A stretch of 64,000 nucleotides of DNA from a virus (IMGVR_UViG_3300046007_007030), one strand, 5' to 3'. Positions 1-5,884 are shown, counted from the first letter of the stretch. Notes: a model not told the origin generated them from the letters alone. A program made the numbers and translations.

Positions 1-62
1 CTCTACCTCCCGACTTCGGAGGCCCACTGCCTGGATCGATAGCGCTGAGTCGTCTAAGTTAT

Positions 63-152
63 TGGCGGAGTGGTGGCGGTATCGATCCCCTGACCCGTAG
101 GTTCCATTCGTTTTCAAGACGAAGCTAGCATCCCCGGCTAGATACGCACTCC
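63..152 (-). tRNA. tRNA-Ser(TGA)
   Basis: Cloverleaf; anticodon arm TTCGT-CT TGA AA-ACGAA, long variable arm, 3' GCCA. Confidence 0.88.
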
Positions 153-493
153 AATTGTTTTCTACCTCTATTTCTAGATTTGTAAGTATCTAATTGGCTA
201 TCGCAGTTGCTACAGACAAAACGTAAATTGCTTAGCCTGTTATCATCATTGATACCATTGATGTGATCTAAAATCAGAGGCATCGGCTTACCGTTCCAGA
301 TGGGATCAATGCCACATACTGCACAACAGTAAGGAATCTTCTTGTCTTCTATTATTCTCTTTTTGATGTGATGTCTTGCGTATGTGCTATTAGCTACAAA
401 TACATCTTCATCTTTGAATTTCTTAGCCTTGTTGAAGGCTACGATATTTGCGGTAGTTATTGGGTTACCGCCACCACCTTTTTTCTTCTGCAT
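125..493 (-). CDS. HNH homing endonuclease
   Basis: CAVC...LILDHINGINDDNRLSNLRFVCSNC HNH/Zn motif; AGGAGG RBS; AT-rich; stop codon lies inside tRNA-Ser. Confidence 0.88.
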   Translation of the reverse strand: MQKKKGGGGNPITTANIVAFNKAKKFKDEDVFVANSTYARHHIKKRIIEDKKIPYCCAVCGIDPIWNGKPMPLILDHINGINDDNRLSNLRFVCSNCDSQLDTYKSRNRGRKQLECVSSRGC

Positions 494-587
494 ATAAGAT
501 CCTCCTAGATCTATATATGCTTCCAGTGGTATCTGGAACAGCTGGAACTAAAATTATTTTAGCATCCCCGGCTAGATACGCACTCCA
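126..587. repeat. 28-bp direct repeat (126-153 and 560-587) equal to the 5' end of tRNA-Ser, flanking the HNH gene
   Basis: TAGCATCCCCGGCTAGATACGCACTCCA is identical at both positions. Confidence 0.95.
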
Positions 588-634
588 TATTGAGGACCGG
601 CCCGTACGCATCTGCGCAGAGGGACCGGCCATAT

Positions 635-711
635 TGGCTGCTCGAGTAGGGATCGAACCTACGACATCCTGATTAACAGTCAGGCGCAACTACCAGCTGT
701 GCTACCGAGCA
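635..711 (-). tRNA. tRNA-Asn(GTT)
   Basis: CCTGA-CT GTT AA-TCAGG; T loop GGTTCGATCC; CCA end. Confidence 0.93.
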
Positions 712-737
712 ATATTCGCACCGATTTCTTAGAGTGG

Positions 738-1088
738 TTACGGCCTCCACTTCTTTCCTAGTACTTCTATCTTGACTCTGCAGACGCCTAGGCATCCTAT
801 CTTCATGGCAGCGCCTCGAGAGAGGTCTATGGTACGACCCGGTGTGAATGGGCCGCGATCGTTTATCCTGACTACTACTGACTTCTTCTTATACGTCACT
901 CTTACGAATGTGCCGAATGGCAGTGTCTTGTGAGCCGCAGTCATAGCCCACTGATTGAATCTCTCACCATTAGCCGTGAGACGGCCGTGGAACCCTGGAC
1001 CATACCAGGAAGCTACAGACGAATTTGCCGGGGTCGACCAGACGACTAGTGCCATCAGGAGTGCCGCGACTCTTATCTTCTTAGCCAT
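738..1088 (-). CDS. rlpA: RlpA-like double-psi beta-barrel protein (lytic transglycosylase family) with signal peptide
   Basis: [45 protein letters not shown] motifs. Confidence 0.9.
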
Positions 1089-1156
1089 TTATTCTCCTAT
1101 CGTTGCAGTGTACCCTGATTTGGATTCATTGTACACGGTTTTTTTAGTAGAATGGA

Positions 1157-1233
1157 TGGAGATCGCCGAGGGACTCAAACCCCCAACCTCTGCGTTCGTA
1201 GCGCAGTGCTCTATTCGGTTGAGCTAGGCGACC
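1157..1233 (-). tRNA. tRNA-Arg(ACG)
   Basis: CTGCG-CT ACG AA-CGCAG; CCA end. Confidence 0.9.
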
Positions 1234-1280
1234 GTTCTGTGAGAAGTGTCTAATCGCTGTATGTCTATAGTATGTATAGT

Positions 1281-1356
1281 TGGAGGAGCCGAGTGGATTT
1301 GAACCACCACCTCAAGGATTTGCAGTCCCGCACATTAACCGTTTTGCTACGGCTCC
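1281..1356 (-). tRNA. tRNA-Cys(GCA)
   Basis: GGA-CT GCA AA-TCC; U73 discriminator; CCA end. Confidence 0.9.
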
Positions 1357-1360
1357 ATAT

Positions 1361-1434
1361 TGGCTGCCCTTCGTGGATTCGAACCACAATAGCCAGAGTC
1401 AGAGTCTGGAGTCCTACCGTTAGACGAAAGAGCA
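1361..1434 (-). tRNA. tRNA-Gln(CTG)
   Basis: CCAGA-CT CTG AC-TCTGG; U1-A72; CCA end. Confidence 0.92.
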
Positions 1435-1443
1435 ATAATAAAT

Positions 1444-1540
1444 TGGTGGCTACTCACCCTTTGTAGCCTTCGTCTACGATTTCCCTTTGCACCTACAAAG
1501 TAGTAAGAGAGGCAACACATCCGGATGGCGCGCAGATCGA
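1444..1540 (-). ncRNA. Putative CCA-terminated hairpin RNA (not a tRNA)
   Basis: Ends ACCA in the tRNA orientation; CTTTGTAG/CTACAAAG stem (1459-1466/1493-1500) extended by G-U pairs; no T or D arm. Confidence 0.4.
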
Positions 1541-1542
1541 AT

Positions 1543-1616
1543 TGGTCCCGAGTGGTGGAATCGAACCACCGTATCCGGCTCCACAAACCGGCGTTCTACC
1601 ATTGAACTAAAACGGG
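1543..1616 (-). tRNA. tRNA-His(GTG), no G-1, A73
   Basis: CCGGT-TT GTG GA-GCCGG; 3' GGGACCA; the base before position 1 is A. Confidence 0.88.
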
Positions 1617-1617
1617 T

Positions 1618-1692
1618 TGGTAGCTCTAGCGGGAATCGAACCCGCCTCTCCACCTTGAGAGGGTGACGACCTAGCCGATAGTCGATAGAGCC
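1618..1692 (-). tRNA. tRNA-Glu(CTC)
   Basis: TCACC-CT CTC AA-GGTGG; CCA end. Confidence 0.92.
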
Positions 1693-1699
1693 ATATTTC

Positions 1700-1774
1700 T
1701 GGTAGCCCATACGGGACTCGAACCCGTTTCTGATCCTTGAAAGGGACCTGACCTAACCCGTAGTCGAATGGGCC
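1700..1774 (-). tRNA. tRNA-Glu(TTC)
   Basis: GGTCC-CT TTC AA-GGATC; CCA end. Confidence 0.92.
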
Positions 1775-1775
1775 T

Positions 1776-1852
1776 TGGTGCTCACGAGAGGACTCGAACC
1801 TCCAACGTCTGCCACCTCAAGGCAGTGACTCTACCAGTTGGCCTACGTGAGC
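1776..1852 (-). tRNA. tRNA-Leu(GAG) with short variable loop
   Basis: CTGCC-TT GAG GT-GGCAG; variable region only 5 nt; A73; CCA end. Confidence 0.85.
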
Positions 1853-1857
1853 GATAG

Positions 1858-1934
1858 TGGTTGCGGGTGCCCGAGTCGAACGGACGTCTTTGGCGTATGA
1901 GACCAAGCTGGAACCACCTCCAGTCTAACCCGCA
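1858..1934 (-). tRNA. tRNA-Met(CAT)
   Basis: TTGGT-CT CAT AC-GCCAA; TGCGGGT/ACCCGCA acceptor; CCA end. Confidence 0.85.
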
Positions 1935-1939
1935 ATGAA

Positions 1940-2015
1940 TGGTGTGCCCTCTGGGACTCGAACCCAGGACCTGCCGGTTAAAAGCCGGACGCTCTAACCA
2001 CTGAGCTAAGGGCGC
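1940..2015 (-). tRNA. tRNA-Lys(TTT)
   Basis: CCGG-CT TTT AA-CCGG; CCA end. Confidence 0.93.
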
Positions 2016-2053
2016 ATATATAATGAGTCAATCCTAACACAAATGAGGATAAT

Positions 2054-2338
2054 ATGGAACCGTTTATTTCACAGATCATCTACATGCCATTCTCTCGCAA
2101 GATCGACGGCTTCTTGCCGTGCAGAGGCGACAGTCTGTCTATCAATGGCAACGAGGCTCTCTACTCTCTCATCGGCACCAAGTTCGGTGGAGACGGCAGC
2201 AGTCACTTCAACATTCCGGATCTTCGTCCATGGAATGATGTAGGTCCTGACTACGGTCGTCACACTCGTCGCGAGTGGCATCAAGATGAGCTAGTTCCTC
2301 ACATCGCTATTGCTGGTATCTATCCGGCGTTCGCCTGA
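2054..2338 (+). CDS. Stand-alone phage tail collar-domain protein
   Basis: MEPFISQI...GFLPCRGDSLSINGNEALYSLIGTKFGGDG..HFNIPDLR and C-terminal IAIAGIYP; GAGG RBS. Confidence 0.85.
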   Translation: MEPFISQIIYMPFSRKIDGFLPCRGDSLSINGNEALYSLIGTKFGGDGSSHFNIPDLRPWNDVGPDYGRHTRREWHQDELVPHIAIAGIYPAFA

Positions 2339-2339
2339 T

Positions 2340-2413
2340 TGGCTGGGAGTCTAGGATTCGAACCTAGATAGCGGGATTCAAAGCCCCGCGTCCTGCCGTT
2401 AGACGAACTCCCA
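2340..2413 (-). tRNA. tRNA-Gln(TTG)
   Basis: CGGGG-CT TTG AA-TCCCG; CCA end. Confidence 0.92.
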
Positions 2414-2419
2414 ATAAAC

Positions 2420-2486
2420 TGGTTCCAGCGACGGATTCGAACCGTACTTTGGTAGTGTGCACCTACCGCCCCAGGCTATGCTAGAA
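2420..2486 (-). ncRNA. Minimal tRNA-like RNA or pseudo-tRNA (reduced D arm)
   Basis: TCTAGC/GCTGGA acceptor plus ACCA; T arm ACGG-TTCGAAT-CCGT; GGTAG-GTGCACA-CTACC arm; D arm only GCC-TGG-GGC. Confidence 0.6.
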
Positions 2487-2493
2487 ATAAATT

Positions 2494-2615
2494 TGGTGTG
2501 AGAGGTTGGACTTGAACCAACAATGTCACCCTGACTCATCATCTTGCGAAGATGACTTACGGATTCGAACCGCCTACTGCCCGCCGGCAGGTGTTTACCC
2601 TTTCACCACTCTCAC
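2494..2615 (-). ncRNA. 122-nt tRNA-like RNA with the anticodon arm replaced by a module carrying a second T-loop
   Basis: Perfect GTGAGAG/CTCTCAC acceptor plus ACCA, D arm, T arm GTTGG-TTCAAGT-CCAAC; internal CGG-TTCGAAT-CCG and GTCATCTT/AAGATGAT hairpins. Confidence 0.7.
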
Positions 2616-2620
2616 ATAAT

Positions 2621-2695
2621 TGGTTGGCACAGAAGGTAACGATCCTTCCACCCCTGTCTTATCAGGACAGTGCTCTACCTCTGAGCTATGCGCCA
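2621..2695 (-). tRNA. tRNA-Ile(GAT)
   Basis: CTGTC-CT GAT AA-GACAG; CCA end. Confidence 0.9.
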
Positions 2696-2820
2696 GTGAT
2701 TCGTTACACCTTACAGGTTAAGCCCTTTCGCGAACAGAGTCAGCAATCCTGTATTCATAGGCTTTCCCTCATGTTGGGCCTATTAGGTCTCCCCTGTCTT
2801 ATCTAGAAAGACGGGTAATT

Positions 2821-2904
2821 TGGTGGGCAGGTGCGGTTACGATCCACTCCCTTTAAGGATGGGTTTTACAGACCCACTGCTAGAACCACTAGCTTTACCT
2901 ACCC
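2821..2904 (-). tRNA. tRNA-Tyr(GTA)
   Basis: TGGGT-CT GTA AA-ACCCA; long variable arm; CCA end. Confidence 0.88.
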
Positions 2905-3100
2905 GAAACTTGCTGAGCCTCACGCGGTCGGCTCGAATGTCGTCTGTAACTTGGCGACACATTCACAGTAACGTTATTCCGTTCTCAAGCGAACGGCGTC
3001 CTGTGCGATGGTGACAGATCAAACTTGATGTCAGTCTCACAGTTATTCGACTGACTGTCTGACATTCATGACGCGCATTGCTGCTACGTAGTCAGATCAT
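2905..3100 (-). ncRNA. Putative multi-hairpin ncRNA (about 200 nt)
   Basis: Stems ATGTCAG/CTGACAT, ACAGT/ACTGT, CACAG/CTGTG, CCGTTC/GAACGG, GAGCC/GGCTC; no credible ORF. Confidence 0.45.
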
Positions 3101-3103
3101 TAT

Positions 3104-3178
3104 TGGTGGACCCTAAGAGAATCGAACTCTTACTTTCTGCGTGCAAAGCAGATGTGCTCCCATTATCACTAAGGGCCC
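3104..3178 (-). tRNA. tRNA-Ala(TGC)
   Basis: TCTGC-TT TGC AC-GCAGA; G3:U70 pair; CCA end. Confidence 0.93.
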
Positions 3179-3183
3179 GTTAT

Positions 3184-3257
3184 TGGCACCAGTGCAAGGA
3201 TTCGAACCCTGACAGACGGTTTTGGAGACCGGCGTGCTACCGTTACACTACACTGAT
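3184..3257 (-). tRNA. tRNA-Trp(CCA)
   Basis: CGGT-CT CCA AA-ACCG; G73; CCA end. Confidence 0.92.
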
Positions 3258-3263
3258 ATGAAT

Positions 3264-3341
3264 TGGTCTAGGTGGCAGGATTTGAACCTGCGATCCCCTG
3301 CTCCCAAGGCAGGTGCGATGGCCAGACTTCGCTACACCTAG
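3264..3341 (-). tRNA. tRNA-Pro(TGG)
   Basis: CCTGC-CT TGG GA-GCAGG; C1-G72; CCA end. Confidence 0.92.
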
Positions 3342-3347
3342 TTCTAA

Positions 3348-3421
3348 TGGCGATCCTGACGGGACTCGAACCCGCCTTCTCGGATAGACAGTCCGAGGCC
3401 TTCCCTGACGGCAACAGGACC
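3348..3421 (-). tRNA. tRNA-Asp(GTC)
   Basis: TCGGA-CT GTC TA-TCCGA; G73; CCA end. Confidence 0.9.
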
Positions 3422-3427
3422 TTGAAT

Positions 3428-3502
3428 TGGAGGACCGGGTGAGAGTCGAACTCACACCTTGCAGATTAAGAGTCTGGTGCACTACCATTGTGCTACCGGT
3501 CC
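3428..3502 (-). tRNA. tRNA-Lys(CTT)
   Basis: CAGA-CT CTT AA-TCTG; CCA end. Confidence 0.9.
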
Positions 3503-3507
3503 ATGAT

Positions 3508-3583
3508 TGGCTGAAGAGGCAGGGCTCGAACCTGCGACCGTCCCGTTAACAGCGGGATGCTCTACCAACTGAGCTACACTTCA
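3508..3583 (-). tRNA. tRNA-Asn(GTT), second copy
   Basis: TCCCG-CT GTT AA-CGGGA; CCA end. Confidence 0.92.
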
Positions 3584-3588
3584 ATGTG

Positions 3589-3715
3589 TCTTATCACTTC
3601 AGATATGCACCGACGGTTTCGAAGCCGTCCACCTTGAACGCTCCATACGGGGCGTGGCTGTGTCCTACACGGGGCGGTAGCTACAACGCCCTGGTGCATA
3701 TCTGAAGAGATAAGA
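3589..3715 (-). ncRNA. Putative structured RNA: long closing helix with a multibranch head
   Basis: Perfect 15-bp inverted repeat 3597-3611/3693-3707 plus a 7-bp extension, enclosing three hairpins. Confidence 0.55.
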
Positions 3716-3809
3716 GTAAGAATGAAACTCGCCGGAAACCACTTGTACGCTCAAAGAGTCCACGTACCGGTCGAGTTCGCTCGGTATCGGCCGAGCACCG
3801 TATTCTTAC
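3716..3809 (-). ncRNA. Putative structured RNA
   Basis: GTAAGAAT/ATTCTTAC closing stem; AACTCG-CCGG/CCGG-T-CGAGTT and GCTCGG/CCGAGC stems. Confidence 0.45.
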
Positions 3810-3838
3810 CTTTTACACAGCCGACTAAAAAATGTCAA
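3810..3838 (-). promoter_or_regulatory. Possible sigma70-type promoter directly upstream of the RNA array
   Basis: TTGACA-N17-TAAAAG with the same TTGACATTTTT(T)AG motif as the 4262 and 4773 promoters; -10 is weak. Confidence 0.45.
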
Positions 3839-4041
3839 CTGTCTTTTTCATCGAGGTCGTTAAAAGATTGTCGCCTCGGAACCTGATCGAAAGATCCCTT
3901 CGCGAAGACGACGGTATCCTCCGGTGCGATCTCTCGTTGTGCCCGCTGGTCCCACCCTCGATGGATGAAGTCCGGCGAACCGAATGTGCGGCATGCTCGA
4001 GTATACTCGTCGCCGCGAAAACCAACGAAGTGAACTGCCAT
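3835..4041 (-). CDS. Hypothetical 68-aa protein, first gene after the attenuator
   Basis: ATG with AGGAG RBS immediately after the terminator U-tract; globular-looking sequence. Confidence 0.7.
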   Translation of the reverse strand: MAVHFVGFRGDEYTRACRTFGSPDFIHRGWDQRAQREIAPEDTVVFAKGSFDQVPRRQSFNDLDEKDS

Positions 4042-4053
4042 AGCTCTACTCCT

Positions 4054-4090
4054 AAAAGAAAAGGCCTCGGAGACTTTCGTCTGCGAGGCC
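4054..4090 (-). terminator. Intrinsic terminator (attenuator)
   Basis: GGCCTCG-CAGAC-GAAA-GTCT-CCGAGGCC followed by TTTTCTTTT. Confidence 0.88.
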
Positions 4091-4135
4091 CTGAATCTTA
4101 CGTGTGTCTTAGATCACGTCAAGATGCAGTGCCTC
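4085..4135 (-). promoter_or_regulatory. Antiterminator hairpin, mutually exclusive with the 4054-4090 terminator
   Basis: GAGGCACTG-C-ATCTT-G-ACGTG pairs with CACGT-AAGAT-T-CAGGGCCTC and sequesters the terminator 5' arm. Confidence 0.75.
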
Positions 4136-4208
4136 CACTACCGACCCACTGCTTGCGCGGGGTGGCTTCGAAGGATGCTAGATAATTATGAATCGACTGC
4201 GTAGACAC
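4119..4208 (-). CDS. Putative attenuator leader peptide MSTQSIHNYLASFEATPRKQWVGSGGTAS (29 aa)
   Basis: GGAG RBS 6 nt before a GTG start; TGA stop lies inside the antiterminator 5' arm; absent from the ORF track. Confidence 0.72.
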   Translation of the reverse strand: MSTQSIHNYLASFEATPRKQWVGSGGTAS

Positions 4209-4233
4209 TACGAACTCCGTTGTTCTTGATCTA

Positions 4234-4262
4234 TATATGCCGCGACACGCTAAAAATGTCAA
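4234..4262 (-). promoter_or_regulatory. sigma70-type promoter for the leader/tRNA unit
   Basis: TTGACA-N17-CATATA. Confidence 0.65.
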
Positions 4263-4283
4263 TGCCGCGGCATATTTTTTTTC

Positions 4284-4709
4284 TCAGGCCTGACGAGCAG
4301 CGAGCTTCTGCTTCTTGATGAACTCGCGGATCATCGCGGTAGCCGGCTTCTCGATCACTACCTCGGCGGCAGGAGCATCAGCAGCGACTGGAGTCGACTC
4401 CTTCGACTTCTTCTTCTTCTTAGCGTACTCCTTGCCAACCTTCTTCATCACGTCCTGTATCTTAACAGTCTTGGGCTCCTTGGCAACCTTAGCTGCCTTG
4501 GCAGACTTCCAGGGAGTGTCGTCTGGCTGGAACTTCGAGATGAGACCGTGCTTGATCATGTACTTGTAGTAAGCACGACCGGCGTACTTGTTGAGGTCGA
4601 GGGCGACTGAGATCATATGAGCGACCTCGAAGAAGTCCTTGTCGAGGTTCTCCTCGATGATCTTGATGGCGGTGGCTTTCTTAGAGCCGCGGGGGAAGGT
4701 GTTGGTCAT
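4284..4709 (-). CDS. Hypothetical Lys-rich early protein
   Basis: Good codon usage, AGGA RBS, strong upstream promoter. Confidence 0.75.
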   Translation of the reverse strand: MTNTFPRGSKKATAIKIIEENLDKDFFEVAHMISVALDLNKYAGRAYYKYMIKHGLISKFQPDDTPWKSAKAAKVAKEPKTVKIQDVMKKVGKEYAKKKKKSKESTPVAADAPAAEVVIEKPATAMIREFIKKQKLAARQA

Positions 4710-4743
4710 GATGTATATCCTATGTTTGTTTCACTGTAGTCAC

Positions 4744-4773
4744 ATTATACACCGGTTGGCTAAAAAATGTCAA
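4744..4773 (-). promoter_or_regulatory. Early sigma70-type promoter
   Basis: TTGACA-N18-TATAAT with extended TG. Confidence 0.8.
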
Positions 4774-4877
4774 CCGTAAAATTCGAAGAGAGTTCCCAGG
4801 GTTCATGCACTAGGTGCGTCATCTGCAGGTCACTCACAACCCTCATATTCGTAGAGTACCCTATTCAGGGAAATATG

Positions 4878-5015
4878 TCAACGGTTGAGTTGCTGAAAGC
4901 ACACGTCGTAGGAGTGTTTCTCTTGACAGGCCGACATGGCCGAGCTGTCGATGATGTTGAGGGCCACCAAGATGGTGAGACCGATCATGGCGATCAGGAT
5001 GAGAGAGCTCTTCAT
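4878..5015 (-). CDS. Small membrane protein (one TM helix, two Cys)
   Basis: MKSSLILIAMIGLTILVALNII...C...C; start re-called at 5015. Confidence 0.55.
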   Translation of the reverse strand: MKSSLILIAMIGLTILVALNIIDSSAMSACQEKHSYDVCFQQLNR

Positions 5016-5122
5016 GTAGATTACCGTGTTTCCCTGTGTTTCCATTATTAGTACCTTACTCAGGGTGCCCATAAATGTACATGCCTAAAACGCAAAAAAG
5101 CGCCCAGGGAGCTAAAAAAATT

Positions 5123-5216
5123 AAAGCCAACAAAATCAATAACTTAAGCATCCGGCAGCTCCGGAAGCAAGTCATTGAAATTGTTGGCTTTTTAAGCCAT
5201 TGATTTTGTTAGCTTT
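5123..5216. promoter_or_regulatory. Three IHF-consensus boxes in an inverted/direct repeat arrangement
   Basis: AATCAATAACTTA (+), TTTCAATGACTTG and AATCAATGGCTTA (-), each flanked by AAAGC(C/T)AACAA. Confidence 0.6.
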
Positions 5217-5220
5217 TAGT

Positions 5221-5382
5221 TCAGAGGGCCTTCAAGAGATAAAGGATCTCAGTAGATGTAGGTTCCCTGCCCAGGGAGTTCTTCAAAAAGAGATACTCTT
5301 TTAGATACTCCACTTTGAACATCTTGACGACGCCATCTTCAGGGTCATTCCACAGGTCTATGAGTCTTGATAAGAAGTGCAT
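5221..5382 (-). CDS. Unannotated 53-aa protein MHFLSRLIDLWNDPEDGVVKMFKVEY...
   Basis: AGGAG RBS; open frame from ATG 5382 to TGA 5221. Confidence 0.65.
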   Translation of the reverse strand: MHFLSRLIDLWNDPEDGVVKMFKVEYLKEYLFLKNSLGREPTSTEILYLLKAL

Positions 5383-5437
5383 GTCTTTCTCCTATTAAGC
5401 GAGCACATAAAAAGAGGGCCCTTTCGGCACCCTCTTG
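5383..5437 (-). promoter_or_regulatory. Hairpin with U-tract followed by a ROSE-like SD-sequestering hairpin
   Basis: AAGAGGG-TGCCGAAAGGG-CCCTCTTTTT, then CTCGCT-TAAT-AGGAG. Confidence 0.55.
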
Positions 5438-5485
5438 TCTTATATATGGTAGTGTGTTTTCTAGATATGCAAAAATTGAATAGCT

Positions 5486-5884
5486 TTATGTTCTCTTCTT
5501 GCCGATCGTGTACTTCGGCACTAGGTTCCACTCGTCCTTCTCTTTGTGTGCAATGATCTTGATCTGAGACAGAGGCGCCTTGGGAGACGCCACCTTGTCC
5601 TTCGATATGATCTCTAGCAGACCCCACTCCTCGAGTAAGTCGACGATGGTGTTCCTCCTGCCGCGGTCGTTCTCATCGAAGTCGGAGGTCTTGCCATCCA
5701 GAAGGAACAGTTCTTTGAAATGAGTGATGTAGTACTTGCCCTGCTTGTGGAGGATGTGGCAGGACTGATACAGCGTCTTCTCTTTCTTAGAGGCTACTCC
5801 TACTCTTGACAGAGTCTCCTTGATCTTGAGGAAATCCTCTGCGTTCTTTAGCCTTACCTCTACGAGTGTTTCTACTACGCTCAT
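5486..5884 (-). CDS. regA: Translational repressor RegA
   Basis: DFLKIKETLSRVGVAS..LYQSCHILHKQGKYYITHFKELFLLDG; located after gp62. Confidence 0.96.
   Translation of the reverse strand: MSVVETLVEVRLKNAEDFLKIKETLSRVGVASKKEKTLYQSCHILHKQGKYYITHFKELFLLDGKTSDFDENDRGRRNTIVDLLEEWGLLEIISKDKVASPKAPLSQIKIIAHKEKDEWNLVPKYTIGKKRT

Follow-up and report, generated by a model that had tools for sequence, protein, structure and literature searches.

Why phages carry tRNA genes, and when these are expressed, has been debated for decades. An uncultured T4-like phage from lake water, of which a stretch of 64,000 nt (hereafter the window) was analyzed, poses this question at a single locus: a promoter-like site, a short ORF with a highly varied set of amino acids, a long hairpin and an intrinsic terminator lie in a row upstream of a tRNA gene array. 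Does this region act as a leader-peptide attenuator and, if so, what would it sense and which genes could it affect? As argued below, we lean towards a ribosome-mediated leader-peptide attenuator that reports general decoding speed.

The locus and its relatives

The region is preceded by a series of genes on the same strand:

7923-7270, minus strand: sliding clamp gene
7208-6267 and 6270-5881, minus strand: clamp loader subunits
5884-5486, minus strand: RegA, followed by small ORFs and then by the switch region and the tRNA array

The clamp loader is ~61-65% identical to that of the nearest cultured phages, and the closest of these by this measure, Stenotrophomonas phage DLP_6 (65% identity), has no tRNA array at the syntenic place and so offers no cultured model. 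DNA matching the window is present in many lake-water metagenomes. A nucleotide search with window positions 3500-4800 against 50,697 phage records returned tRNA-sized matches only and no relative, the nearest virus record (G001) gave no match, and neither the leader peptide nor an upstream 141-aa ORF matched Pfam or PHROGs. Since the leader itself had no database match, relatives were recovered via neighboring proteins, i.e., homologs of the 68-aa product of the first gene behind the switch (ORF68).

Six lineages, A to F, were distinguished, all of them metagenomic relatives: lineage A comprises the window and near-identical contigs, B is ~90% and C ~80% identical, followed by D, E and the AT-rich F, the most diverged of the six. 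Promoter, short ORF, hairpin, terminator, ORF68 and tRNA genes follow each other in this order in all six lineages, and the combination that the initial annotation had suggested looking for, a short diverse ORF with covarying terminator and antiterminator stems, recurs in each. A covariance model of the switch region found exactly one copy per locus of the clade and none elsewhere in the window or in unrelated loci. Scanning window positions 1-5500 against Rfam (cmscan, E up to 1) returned tRNAs and chance-level hits, none of which fell at 4054-4262; no curated covariance model of a T-box or another cis-regulatory leader matched there.

A short ORF starts close to the predicted 5′ end

The promoter, GGAG motif, GTG-started 29-codon ORF, hairpin, terminator and U-tract named in the initial annotation are all present where it places them:

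4234-4262, minus strand: promoter-like site P1, with TTGACA at 4262-4257, a 17-nt spacer, CATATA at 4239-4234 and an A-tract upstream
4215-4218, minus strand: GGAG Shine-Dalgarno-like motif, 6 nt before the GTG at 4208
4119-4208, minus strand: leader ORF with GTG start, 29 codons and a TGA stop at 4121-4119
4140-4166, minus strand: small hairpin inside the leader ORF, containing its single Trp codon (UGG, 4148-4146)
4085-4135, minus strand: antiterminator hairpin pairing GAGGC (4135-4131) with GCCUC (4089-4085) and CUG (4129-4127) with CAG (4093-4091)
4125-4095, minus strand: inner stem-loop of the antiterminator, containing the leader stop codon
4054-4092, minus strand: intrinsic terminator with an interrupted 9+4 bp stem (4092-4061), a GAAA loop and the U-tract UUUUCUUUU (4062-4054)

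P1 keeps TTGACA, the 17-nt spacer and TATATA or TATAAA in relatives of lineages A-E wherever this stretch is present. Lineage F contigs start within or just after the -35 box and keep TATAAA. A simple consensus promoter scan did not list P1, whose -10 box ends in A, not T. The -10 elements of the locus are atypical, and the missing canonical final T of P1, together with its absence from the scan, counts against the attenuator reading favored below. Around the -35 box of P1 we observed an 8-bp inverted repeat, ATGCCGCG ... CGCGGCAT (window 4237-4273, minus strand), whose complementarity is kept with other letters in D (11 bp), E (8 bp) and contig L007 (6 bp). Similar repeats span the -35 boxes of promoter-like sites at 4773 and 3838. 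In transcripts that read through from the gene upstream, the repeat may fold as an RNA hairpin.

Leader ORFs of 26-31 codons occupy the same place in all six lineages, each with its start codon near the predicted 5′ end. The GGAG motif is kept at good spacing in A, B, C and E, and in lineages D and F the ORF begins with ATG and no clear Shine-Dalgarno motif precedes it; the layout of an attenuator, with a short ORF and its start signals near the transcript 5′ end, is thus present with a Shine-Dalgarno motif that is weak or absent in D and F. In lineage D (L012/L013:3800-3832), which lacks the motif, the leader ATG lies only 7-8 nt after the -10 box TATAAA, and the leader mRNA may therefore be leaderless.

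Several features suggest that this ORF is translated. Indels between lineages inside the ORF measure 3, 6 and 15 nt, all multiples of three. A 1-nt shift in lineage D is compensated, such that the stop stays in the inner hairpin, and the leader frame is the only one with a start codon at that place in this lineage. Within lineages, substitutions are distributed 6/3/12 over the three codon positions. The peptide is poorly conserved between lineages, the codon changes from A to E being nonsynonymous in 10 cases and synonymous in 4, and its sequence turns over fast. Together with the third-position excess, this turnover would fit a translated ORF whose product is not conserved as a protein. Such behavior is what one expects from leader peptides, and it speaks against a conserved micropeptide.

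Inside the ORF, the small hairpin around the Trp codon appears in folds of A, D and F, with stems CCC/GGG, CCAGU/ACUGG and GCCCA/UGGGC. By analogy with the 1:2 hairpin of trp, it is a possible RNA polymerase pause hairpin.

Two covarying hairpins compete for the same strand

Between the leader ORF and the gene behind it lies an intrinsic terminator, whose hairpin has a folding energy of -21.9 kcal/mol in the window; with its interrupted stem, it was absent from the list of a simple consensus terminator scan. Its 5′ arm and the antiterminator hairpin (4135-4085) have GCCUC in common, which bears out the earlier proposal that this hairpin sequesters the terminator 5′ arm. To follow the folding, transcripts were truncated before the terminator 3′ arm and a ribosome was simulated by masking 30 nt. 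In such truncated transcripts the terminator 5′ arm pairs with the last ORF codons in every lineage. The comparison with and without ribosome-occluded segments that had been put forward as a check gave a clear division: the antiterminator forms in the absence of a ribosome and with the ribosomal A-site at codons 2-20, and is lost with a ribosome at codons 22-30, i.e., from codon 22 to the stop.

Antiterminator energies range from -23.6 to -32.9 kcal/mol across lineages, and at equilibrium the terminator state is favored by 11.5-16.6 kcal/mol. As the terminator state wins at equilibrium, the antiterminator would have to act kinetically. Its outer helix is only 5+3 bp long in the window's own lineage, where it is shortest.

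The core of the antiterminator is written differently across the lineages: GAGGC pairs with GCCUC in A-C, GAGGU with ACCUC within an 11-bp helix in D, GGGU with GCCC in E, and CGGGG with CCCCG, extended by GCC:GGC, in F. The 3′ arm of the terminator changes in step with these lineage-specific letters, and alignment columns 85-89, which form the terminator 5′ arm, are the same columns that are paired in the antiterminator. In the alignment fitted to the model, 87% of antiterminator cells were paired and 6 of 17 pairs had changed on both sides, as compared to 22-51% paired cells when partners were slid by 1-3 columns. For the terminator, 90% of cells were paired and 4 of 11 pairs had changed on both sides across lineages (slid controls of both tests together, 22-67%). 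The underlying MAFFT alignment (A3) was fitted as a whole to the antiterminator model; in it the terminator 3′ arm of D is shifted by one column and rows C, E and F contain a misplaced gap, so the pairing counts are somewhat conservative for these four rows. Antiterminator and terminator are mutually exclusive structures that covary at their shared columns.

How well the last eight codons complement the terminator arm was also compared with shuffled sequences and genome windows. In the window alone it gave P = 0.025-0.055, and per lineage P ranged from 0 to 0.05; four lineages combined by Fisher's method gave ~1e-5 for the shuffle null and 2e-7 for the genome-window null.

The position of the stop codon completes the arrangement. 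It always lies in the 5′ arm of the antiterminator inner stem-loop, and the competing strand lies 6-16 nt before it, as read from the alignment for A, D and F. This strand therefore falls inside a terminating ribosome, and the ORF ends where such a ribosome can mask the antiterminator 5′ strand. A further pairing, between the start-codon region and the antiterminator strand (an anti-antiterminator), was considered and set aside: it occurs in full-length minimum free energy folds of A and B only, is absent in C, D and F, and was therefore treated as incidental. Given the layout, the exclusive helices and the stop geometry, we consider it likely that the region is a ribosome-mediated, leader-peptide transcription attenuator of some kind.

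The leader contains nearly every amino acid and no codon run

What such an attenuator senses would depend on the codons of its leader. A recount gave the figures of the initial annotation: the window leader has 18 different amino acids in 29 codons, all 18 having appeared by codon 23, and its 28 elongation positions use 25 different codons. Cys and Asp are the two amino acids that it lacks. It contains no codon runs, be it for one or a few amino acids. Three nulls (phage gene windows, independent draws from the phage's amino-acid composition, and random codons at the base composition of the leader) predict 14-15 different residues, placing the observed 18 at P of about 0.011-0.017; at least 25 different codons in 28 had P = 0.008 against gene windows. 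None of the 135 other short ORFs in the window exceeded 16 different residues.

Diversity is similarly high in the relatives, with 18 different residues in 29 codons in A and B, 17 in 28 in C, 19 and 20 in 31 in D, 17-18 in 28 in E and 17-18 in 26 in F. One lineage D leader (L013:3830-3925) contains all 20 amino acids in 31 codons; under uniform amino-acid use the chance of this is 0.5% conditioned on shared residues and 0.14% for 30 free draws. D and F played no part in forming the hypothesis and could thus be used to test it. Given the residues shared with other lineages, P was 0.047 for A, 0.022 (19 residues) or 0.001 (20 residues) for D, and 0.003 (18 residues) or 0.011 (17 residues) for F. 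Combining A, D and F (Fisher) gave about 3e-4, and D and F alone, with their least favorable variants, 2e-3. We accept high amino-acid diversity as a conserved property of these sequences, resting on three deep lineages in one of which the data themselves had suggested it.

We also considered, and rejected, a leader written in codons that are read by the phage's own tRNAs. Such codons make up 12 of 28 (43%) in the window against a background of 49%, i.e., they are not enriched; in the lineage D leader they account for 19 of 30 (P = 0.08). A simple feedback loop in which the phage senses its own tRNAs is therefore not supported. As regards the translation-coupled switch that was thought to sample nearly all tRNAs, its layout, covariation and diversity are kept in the relatives, and a match between its codons and the phage tRNAs did not materialize.

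Alternatively, the attenuator might have a narrower or different input, such as the availability of ribosomes or translation initiation, the general coupling of transcription to translation, or a conserved codon or two, with diversity as a by-product of avoiding bias towards a single tRNA. The switch itself would have the same folding, duplex and covariation support in that case, and the diversity P values of individual lineages are modest. Moreover, no codon other than UGG and CGC is shared by all lineages, and tRNA-Trp and tRNA-Arg are both encoded by the phage. However, both codons are located in or beside the conserved small hairpin, and so their conservation may be structural. A single codon of a kind would also be a weak sensor compared with the runs in trp and his leaders, and diversity is high even where lineages have no more than about a quarter to a third of their residues in common. 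We regard such an input as unlikely.

ORF68, bypass promoters and the tRNA array

The initial annotation had presented the leader as a switch for the tRNA array. This needs correction, since the first gene behind the switch is ORF68:

3835-4041, minus strand: ORF68, 68 aa, first gene behind the switch, with AGGAG at 4053-4049 immediately after the U-tract
3810-3838, minus strand: promoter-like site P2, with TTGACA (3838-3833) overlapping the ORF68 stop, a 17-nt spacer and TAAAAG (3815-3810)
635-3583, minus strand: tRNA array of 19 tRNA genes (ARAGORN), with structured RNAs and small ORFs between them

The product of ORF68 is a member of a phage protein family that is widespread, about 65-75 aa long and invariant at His4, Trp30, Asp31, Glu37 and Asp42 (alignment A2); no Pfam or PHROG family was found for it. 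Its model predicts a small alpha/beta fold (pLDDT 83). Fold searches (Foldseek against PDB, VIA-align, atlas) yielded nothing convincing, with a best Z of 3.2, a TM of about 0.5 and matches to generic Rossmann-like halves, and a feature search of the ESM Atlas returned nothing usable. More distant ORF68 homologs have other neighbors, with neither the leader nor tRNA arrays beside them.

In every one of the six lineages tRNA genes follow ORF68. Read-through transcripts would reach them, as no terminator was seen between the ORF68 region and the array. In one metatranscriptome (X19), a 1-kb contig of a relative starts inside the leader ORF (about 4151), spans terminator and ORF68 and reaches the array head; it is a weak hint of read-through, since a contig shows neither transcript ends nor strand and DNA carry-over is possible.

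A second promoter at 3810-3838 that bypasses the switch had been flagged as a caveat, and the relatives reinforce it. P2 recurs throughout lineages A-E; its -10 box is better (TATAAG) in B, C and D, and its TTGACA is kept even where ORF68 ends earlier (L133); the simple consensus promoter scan did not list it. Lineage F has a strong TTGACx-N17-TATATT promoter between terminator and ORF68. As P2 in A-E and the extra promoter in F bypass the switch, the array does not depend on read-through, and the switch can only add to basal transcription. Its effect on tRNA output may hence be modest.

These promoters also matter for another explanation, namely that P1, ORF and terminator form a complete, free-standing unit: an early micropeptide gene and/or a ~170-nt small RNA ending at its own terminator, with the upstream pairing serving RNA stability or processing. 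A separate strong promoter does follow the terminator in F, P2 does precede the array, and RNAs and leader peptides derived from attenuators are reported to act in trans (rnTrpL, peTrpL; PMC6614838, PMC7298713). Against this stands the poor conservation of the peptide noted above and, more specifically, the fact that compensatory changes keep both the hairpin 5′ strand and the terminator 3′ arm complementary to one set of five columns, the signature of mutually exclusive structures. We therefore hold a solely free-standing unit to be improbable; a role in trans could coexist with attenuation.

Further observations were made at the head of the array and within it. A structured RNA of ~95 nt (3716-3809, minus strand) directly follows P2. 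It is almost invariant in A-E, better conserved than the flanking coding DNA, and without a match in Rfam; a pattern scan found its exact 24-nt core in nine viral contigs only, all of them recovered before. At window positions 3589-3715 follows a tRNA-like RNA with a long stem, in which TTCGAAA resembles a T-loop. Between the two RNAs, L007:4290-4530 and L010:4380-4760 carry extra cassettes of ~220-330 nt with long inverted repeats at their bounds, which suggests mobile or duplicating RNA modules at the array head. A gap in the tRNA array holds a 94-aa ORF (2054-2338, plus strand) matching Phage Tail Collar (PF07484, E 6e-18), an odd place and orientation for such a gene. Also within the array, 738-1088 (minus strand) encodes an RlpA-like double-psi beta-barrel protein (DPBB_1) with a signal-like N-terminus. 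Finally, ARAGORN calls a 66-nt tRNA-Cys at 2420-2485 (minus strand) with its anticodon at position 26, far from normal geometry; the same odd call occurs in L005, L007 and L009 and may be part of an unusual tRNA-like RNA.

A model for translation-dependent read-through

In the attenuator that we favor, transcripts starting from the promoter at 4262 would carry the 29-codon leader ORF, whose last codons double as the 5′ strand of the antiterminator, the 3′ strand being the terminator 5′ arm. A leading ribosome that keeps pace with RNA polymerase would reach the end of the ORF and cover the antiterminator 5′ strand; the terminator would then fold and transcription end at 4054. If instead the ribosome lagged or stalled in roughly the first 20 codons, the antiterminator would fold first and the polymerase read into ORF68 and on towards the tRNA array, adding to the supply from the downstream promoter.

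The signal in this model would be the supply of any charged tRNA, not of one amino acid, and this supply could fall when cells starve, when tRNAs are competed for or when they are damaged. With nearly every amino acid present once in the leader and no codon run, general decoding speed is the input that we favor. Taken by itself, the claim that the attenuator responds to general amino-acid or tRNA supply is close to evenly balanced and tilts slightly towards doubt. A stronger version holds that selection keeps the leader as a near-complete set of the 20 amino acids, such that shortage of any single charged tRNA would raise transcription of the tRNA region and the leader would act as a general sensor of decoding capacity. 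We put this forward tentatively and think it less probable than not; in that version, shortage may come about when a slow-growing lake host starves or when a defense system cleaves tRNAs. If true, the phage would gauge the state of the host translation apparatus and adjust its transcription accordingly.

That the ORF is not translated at all and the switch answers to a protein, to a small molecule or, in the manner of a T-box, to a directly bound tRNA, is very improbable, for although translation is deduced from sequence features and D and F lack a good Shine-Dalgarno motif, no Rfam family (T-boxes, riboswitches, known leaders) matches at E up to 1, the start near the 5′ end and the stop in the hairpin are kept in six of six lineages despite indels, a third-position bias is present, and the loops vary across lineages, with no conserved ligand-binding bulge or loop found among them.

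Relation to known regulatory leaders

The leaders of amino-acid biosynthetic operons (trpL, hisL, pheL, thrL and ilvL) carry runs of codons for their end product, covering one to three amino acids. The ribosome-mediated attenuator proposed here resembles them in its promoter-proximal leader ORF, in a possible pause hairpin, in an antiterminator that shares a strand with the terminator, and in a stop codon placed so that the terminating ribosome blocks the antiterminator. Unlike those leaders, it has no repeated regulatory codon and no Rfam match, and a pairing able to occupy the antiterminator strand in untranslated transcripts was found in A and B only, i.e., not as a conserved feature.

Resemblance of a different kind links the phage leader to toiL, the uORF of the E. 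coli topAI-yjhQ operon, which was described for antibiotics and acts via occlusion of the ribosome-binding site and Rho-dependent termination inside topAI (PMC12121999). Like toiL, it would be a multipurpose uORF in which ribosomes stalling at different positions alter the downstream RNA structure and thereby report varied translation stress; unlike toiL, the phage switch is an intrinsic terminator/antiterminator pair.

As for its setting, phage tRNAs replace cleaved or depleted host tRNAs and can rescue infection under tRNA-targeting defenses, according to two studies (PMC10264068, PMC11555353). Both reportedly concern what phage tRNAs do, a context that would make a sensor of decoding speed useful. 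Our literature search found no paper on leader-peptide control of phage tRNA gene transcription. The initial annotation's statement that it knew of no described phage example agrees with this for tRNA genes; the sensing logic itself is not without precedent, since a leader covering many amino acids is already described for the whiB7 uORF.

The closest described system is indeed whiB7 (wblC) of mycobacteria, in which a uORF precedes a Rho-independent terminator with an alternative antiterminator, efficient translation leading to termination and slow translation to read-through (PMC10274678). The uORF peptide of M. smegmatis contains every amino acid except Cys, whiB7 is induced by shortage of many amino acids, tRNAs or synthetases, and the amino-acid content of the uORF sets what is sensed (PMC10274678). 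The phage leader shares with it a short, diverse uORF peptide coupled to a terminator/antiterminator pair. It differs in composition, as whiB7 uORFs are 25-40% alanine and the phage leader, with 26-31 codons across lineages, has 3 Ala in 29 (about 10%) in the window. The two systems also differ in output, whiB7 controlling a transcription factor with positive feedback on a bacterial chromosome, the phage switch preceding ORF68 and a tRNA array, and they have no sequence similarity. An Ala-rich uORF followed by a WhiB-family regulator, the hallmark of that family, is absent here (3 Ala in 29; ORF68 without Pfam or PHROG family). The phage leader would thus work like whiB7 without being a member of the whiB7 family. 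If the proposed mechanism is correct, many-amino-acid attenuators of the whiB7 type would not be confined to the chromosomes of actinobacteria but would also occur, in a very compact version, in lytic phages.
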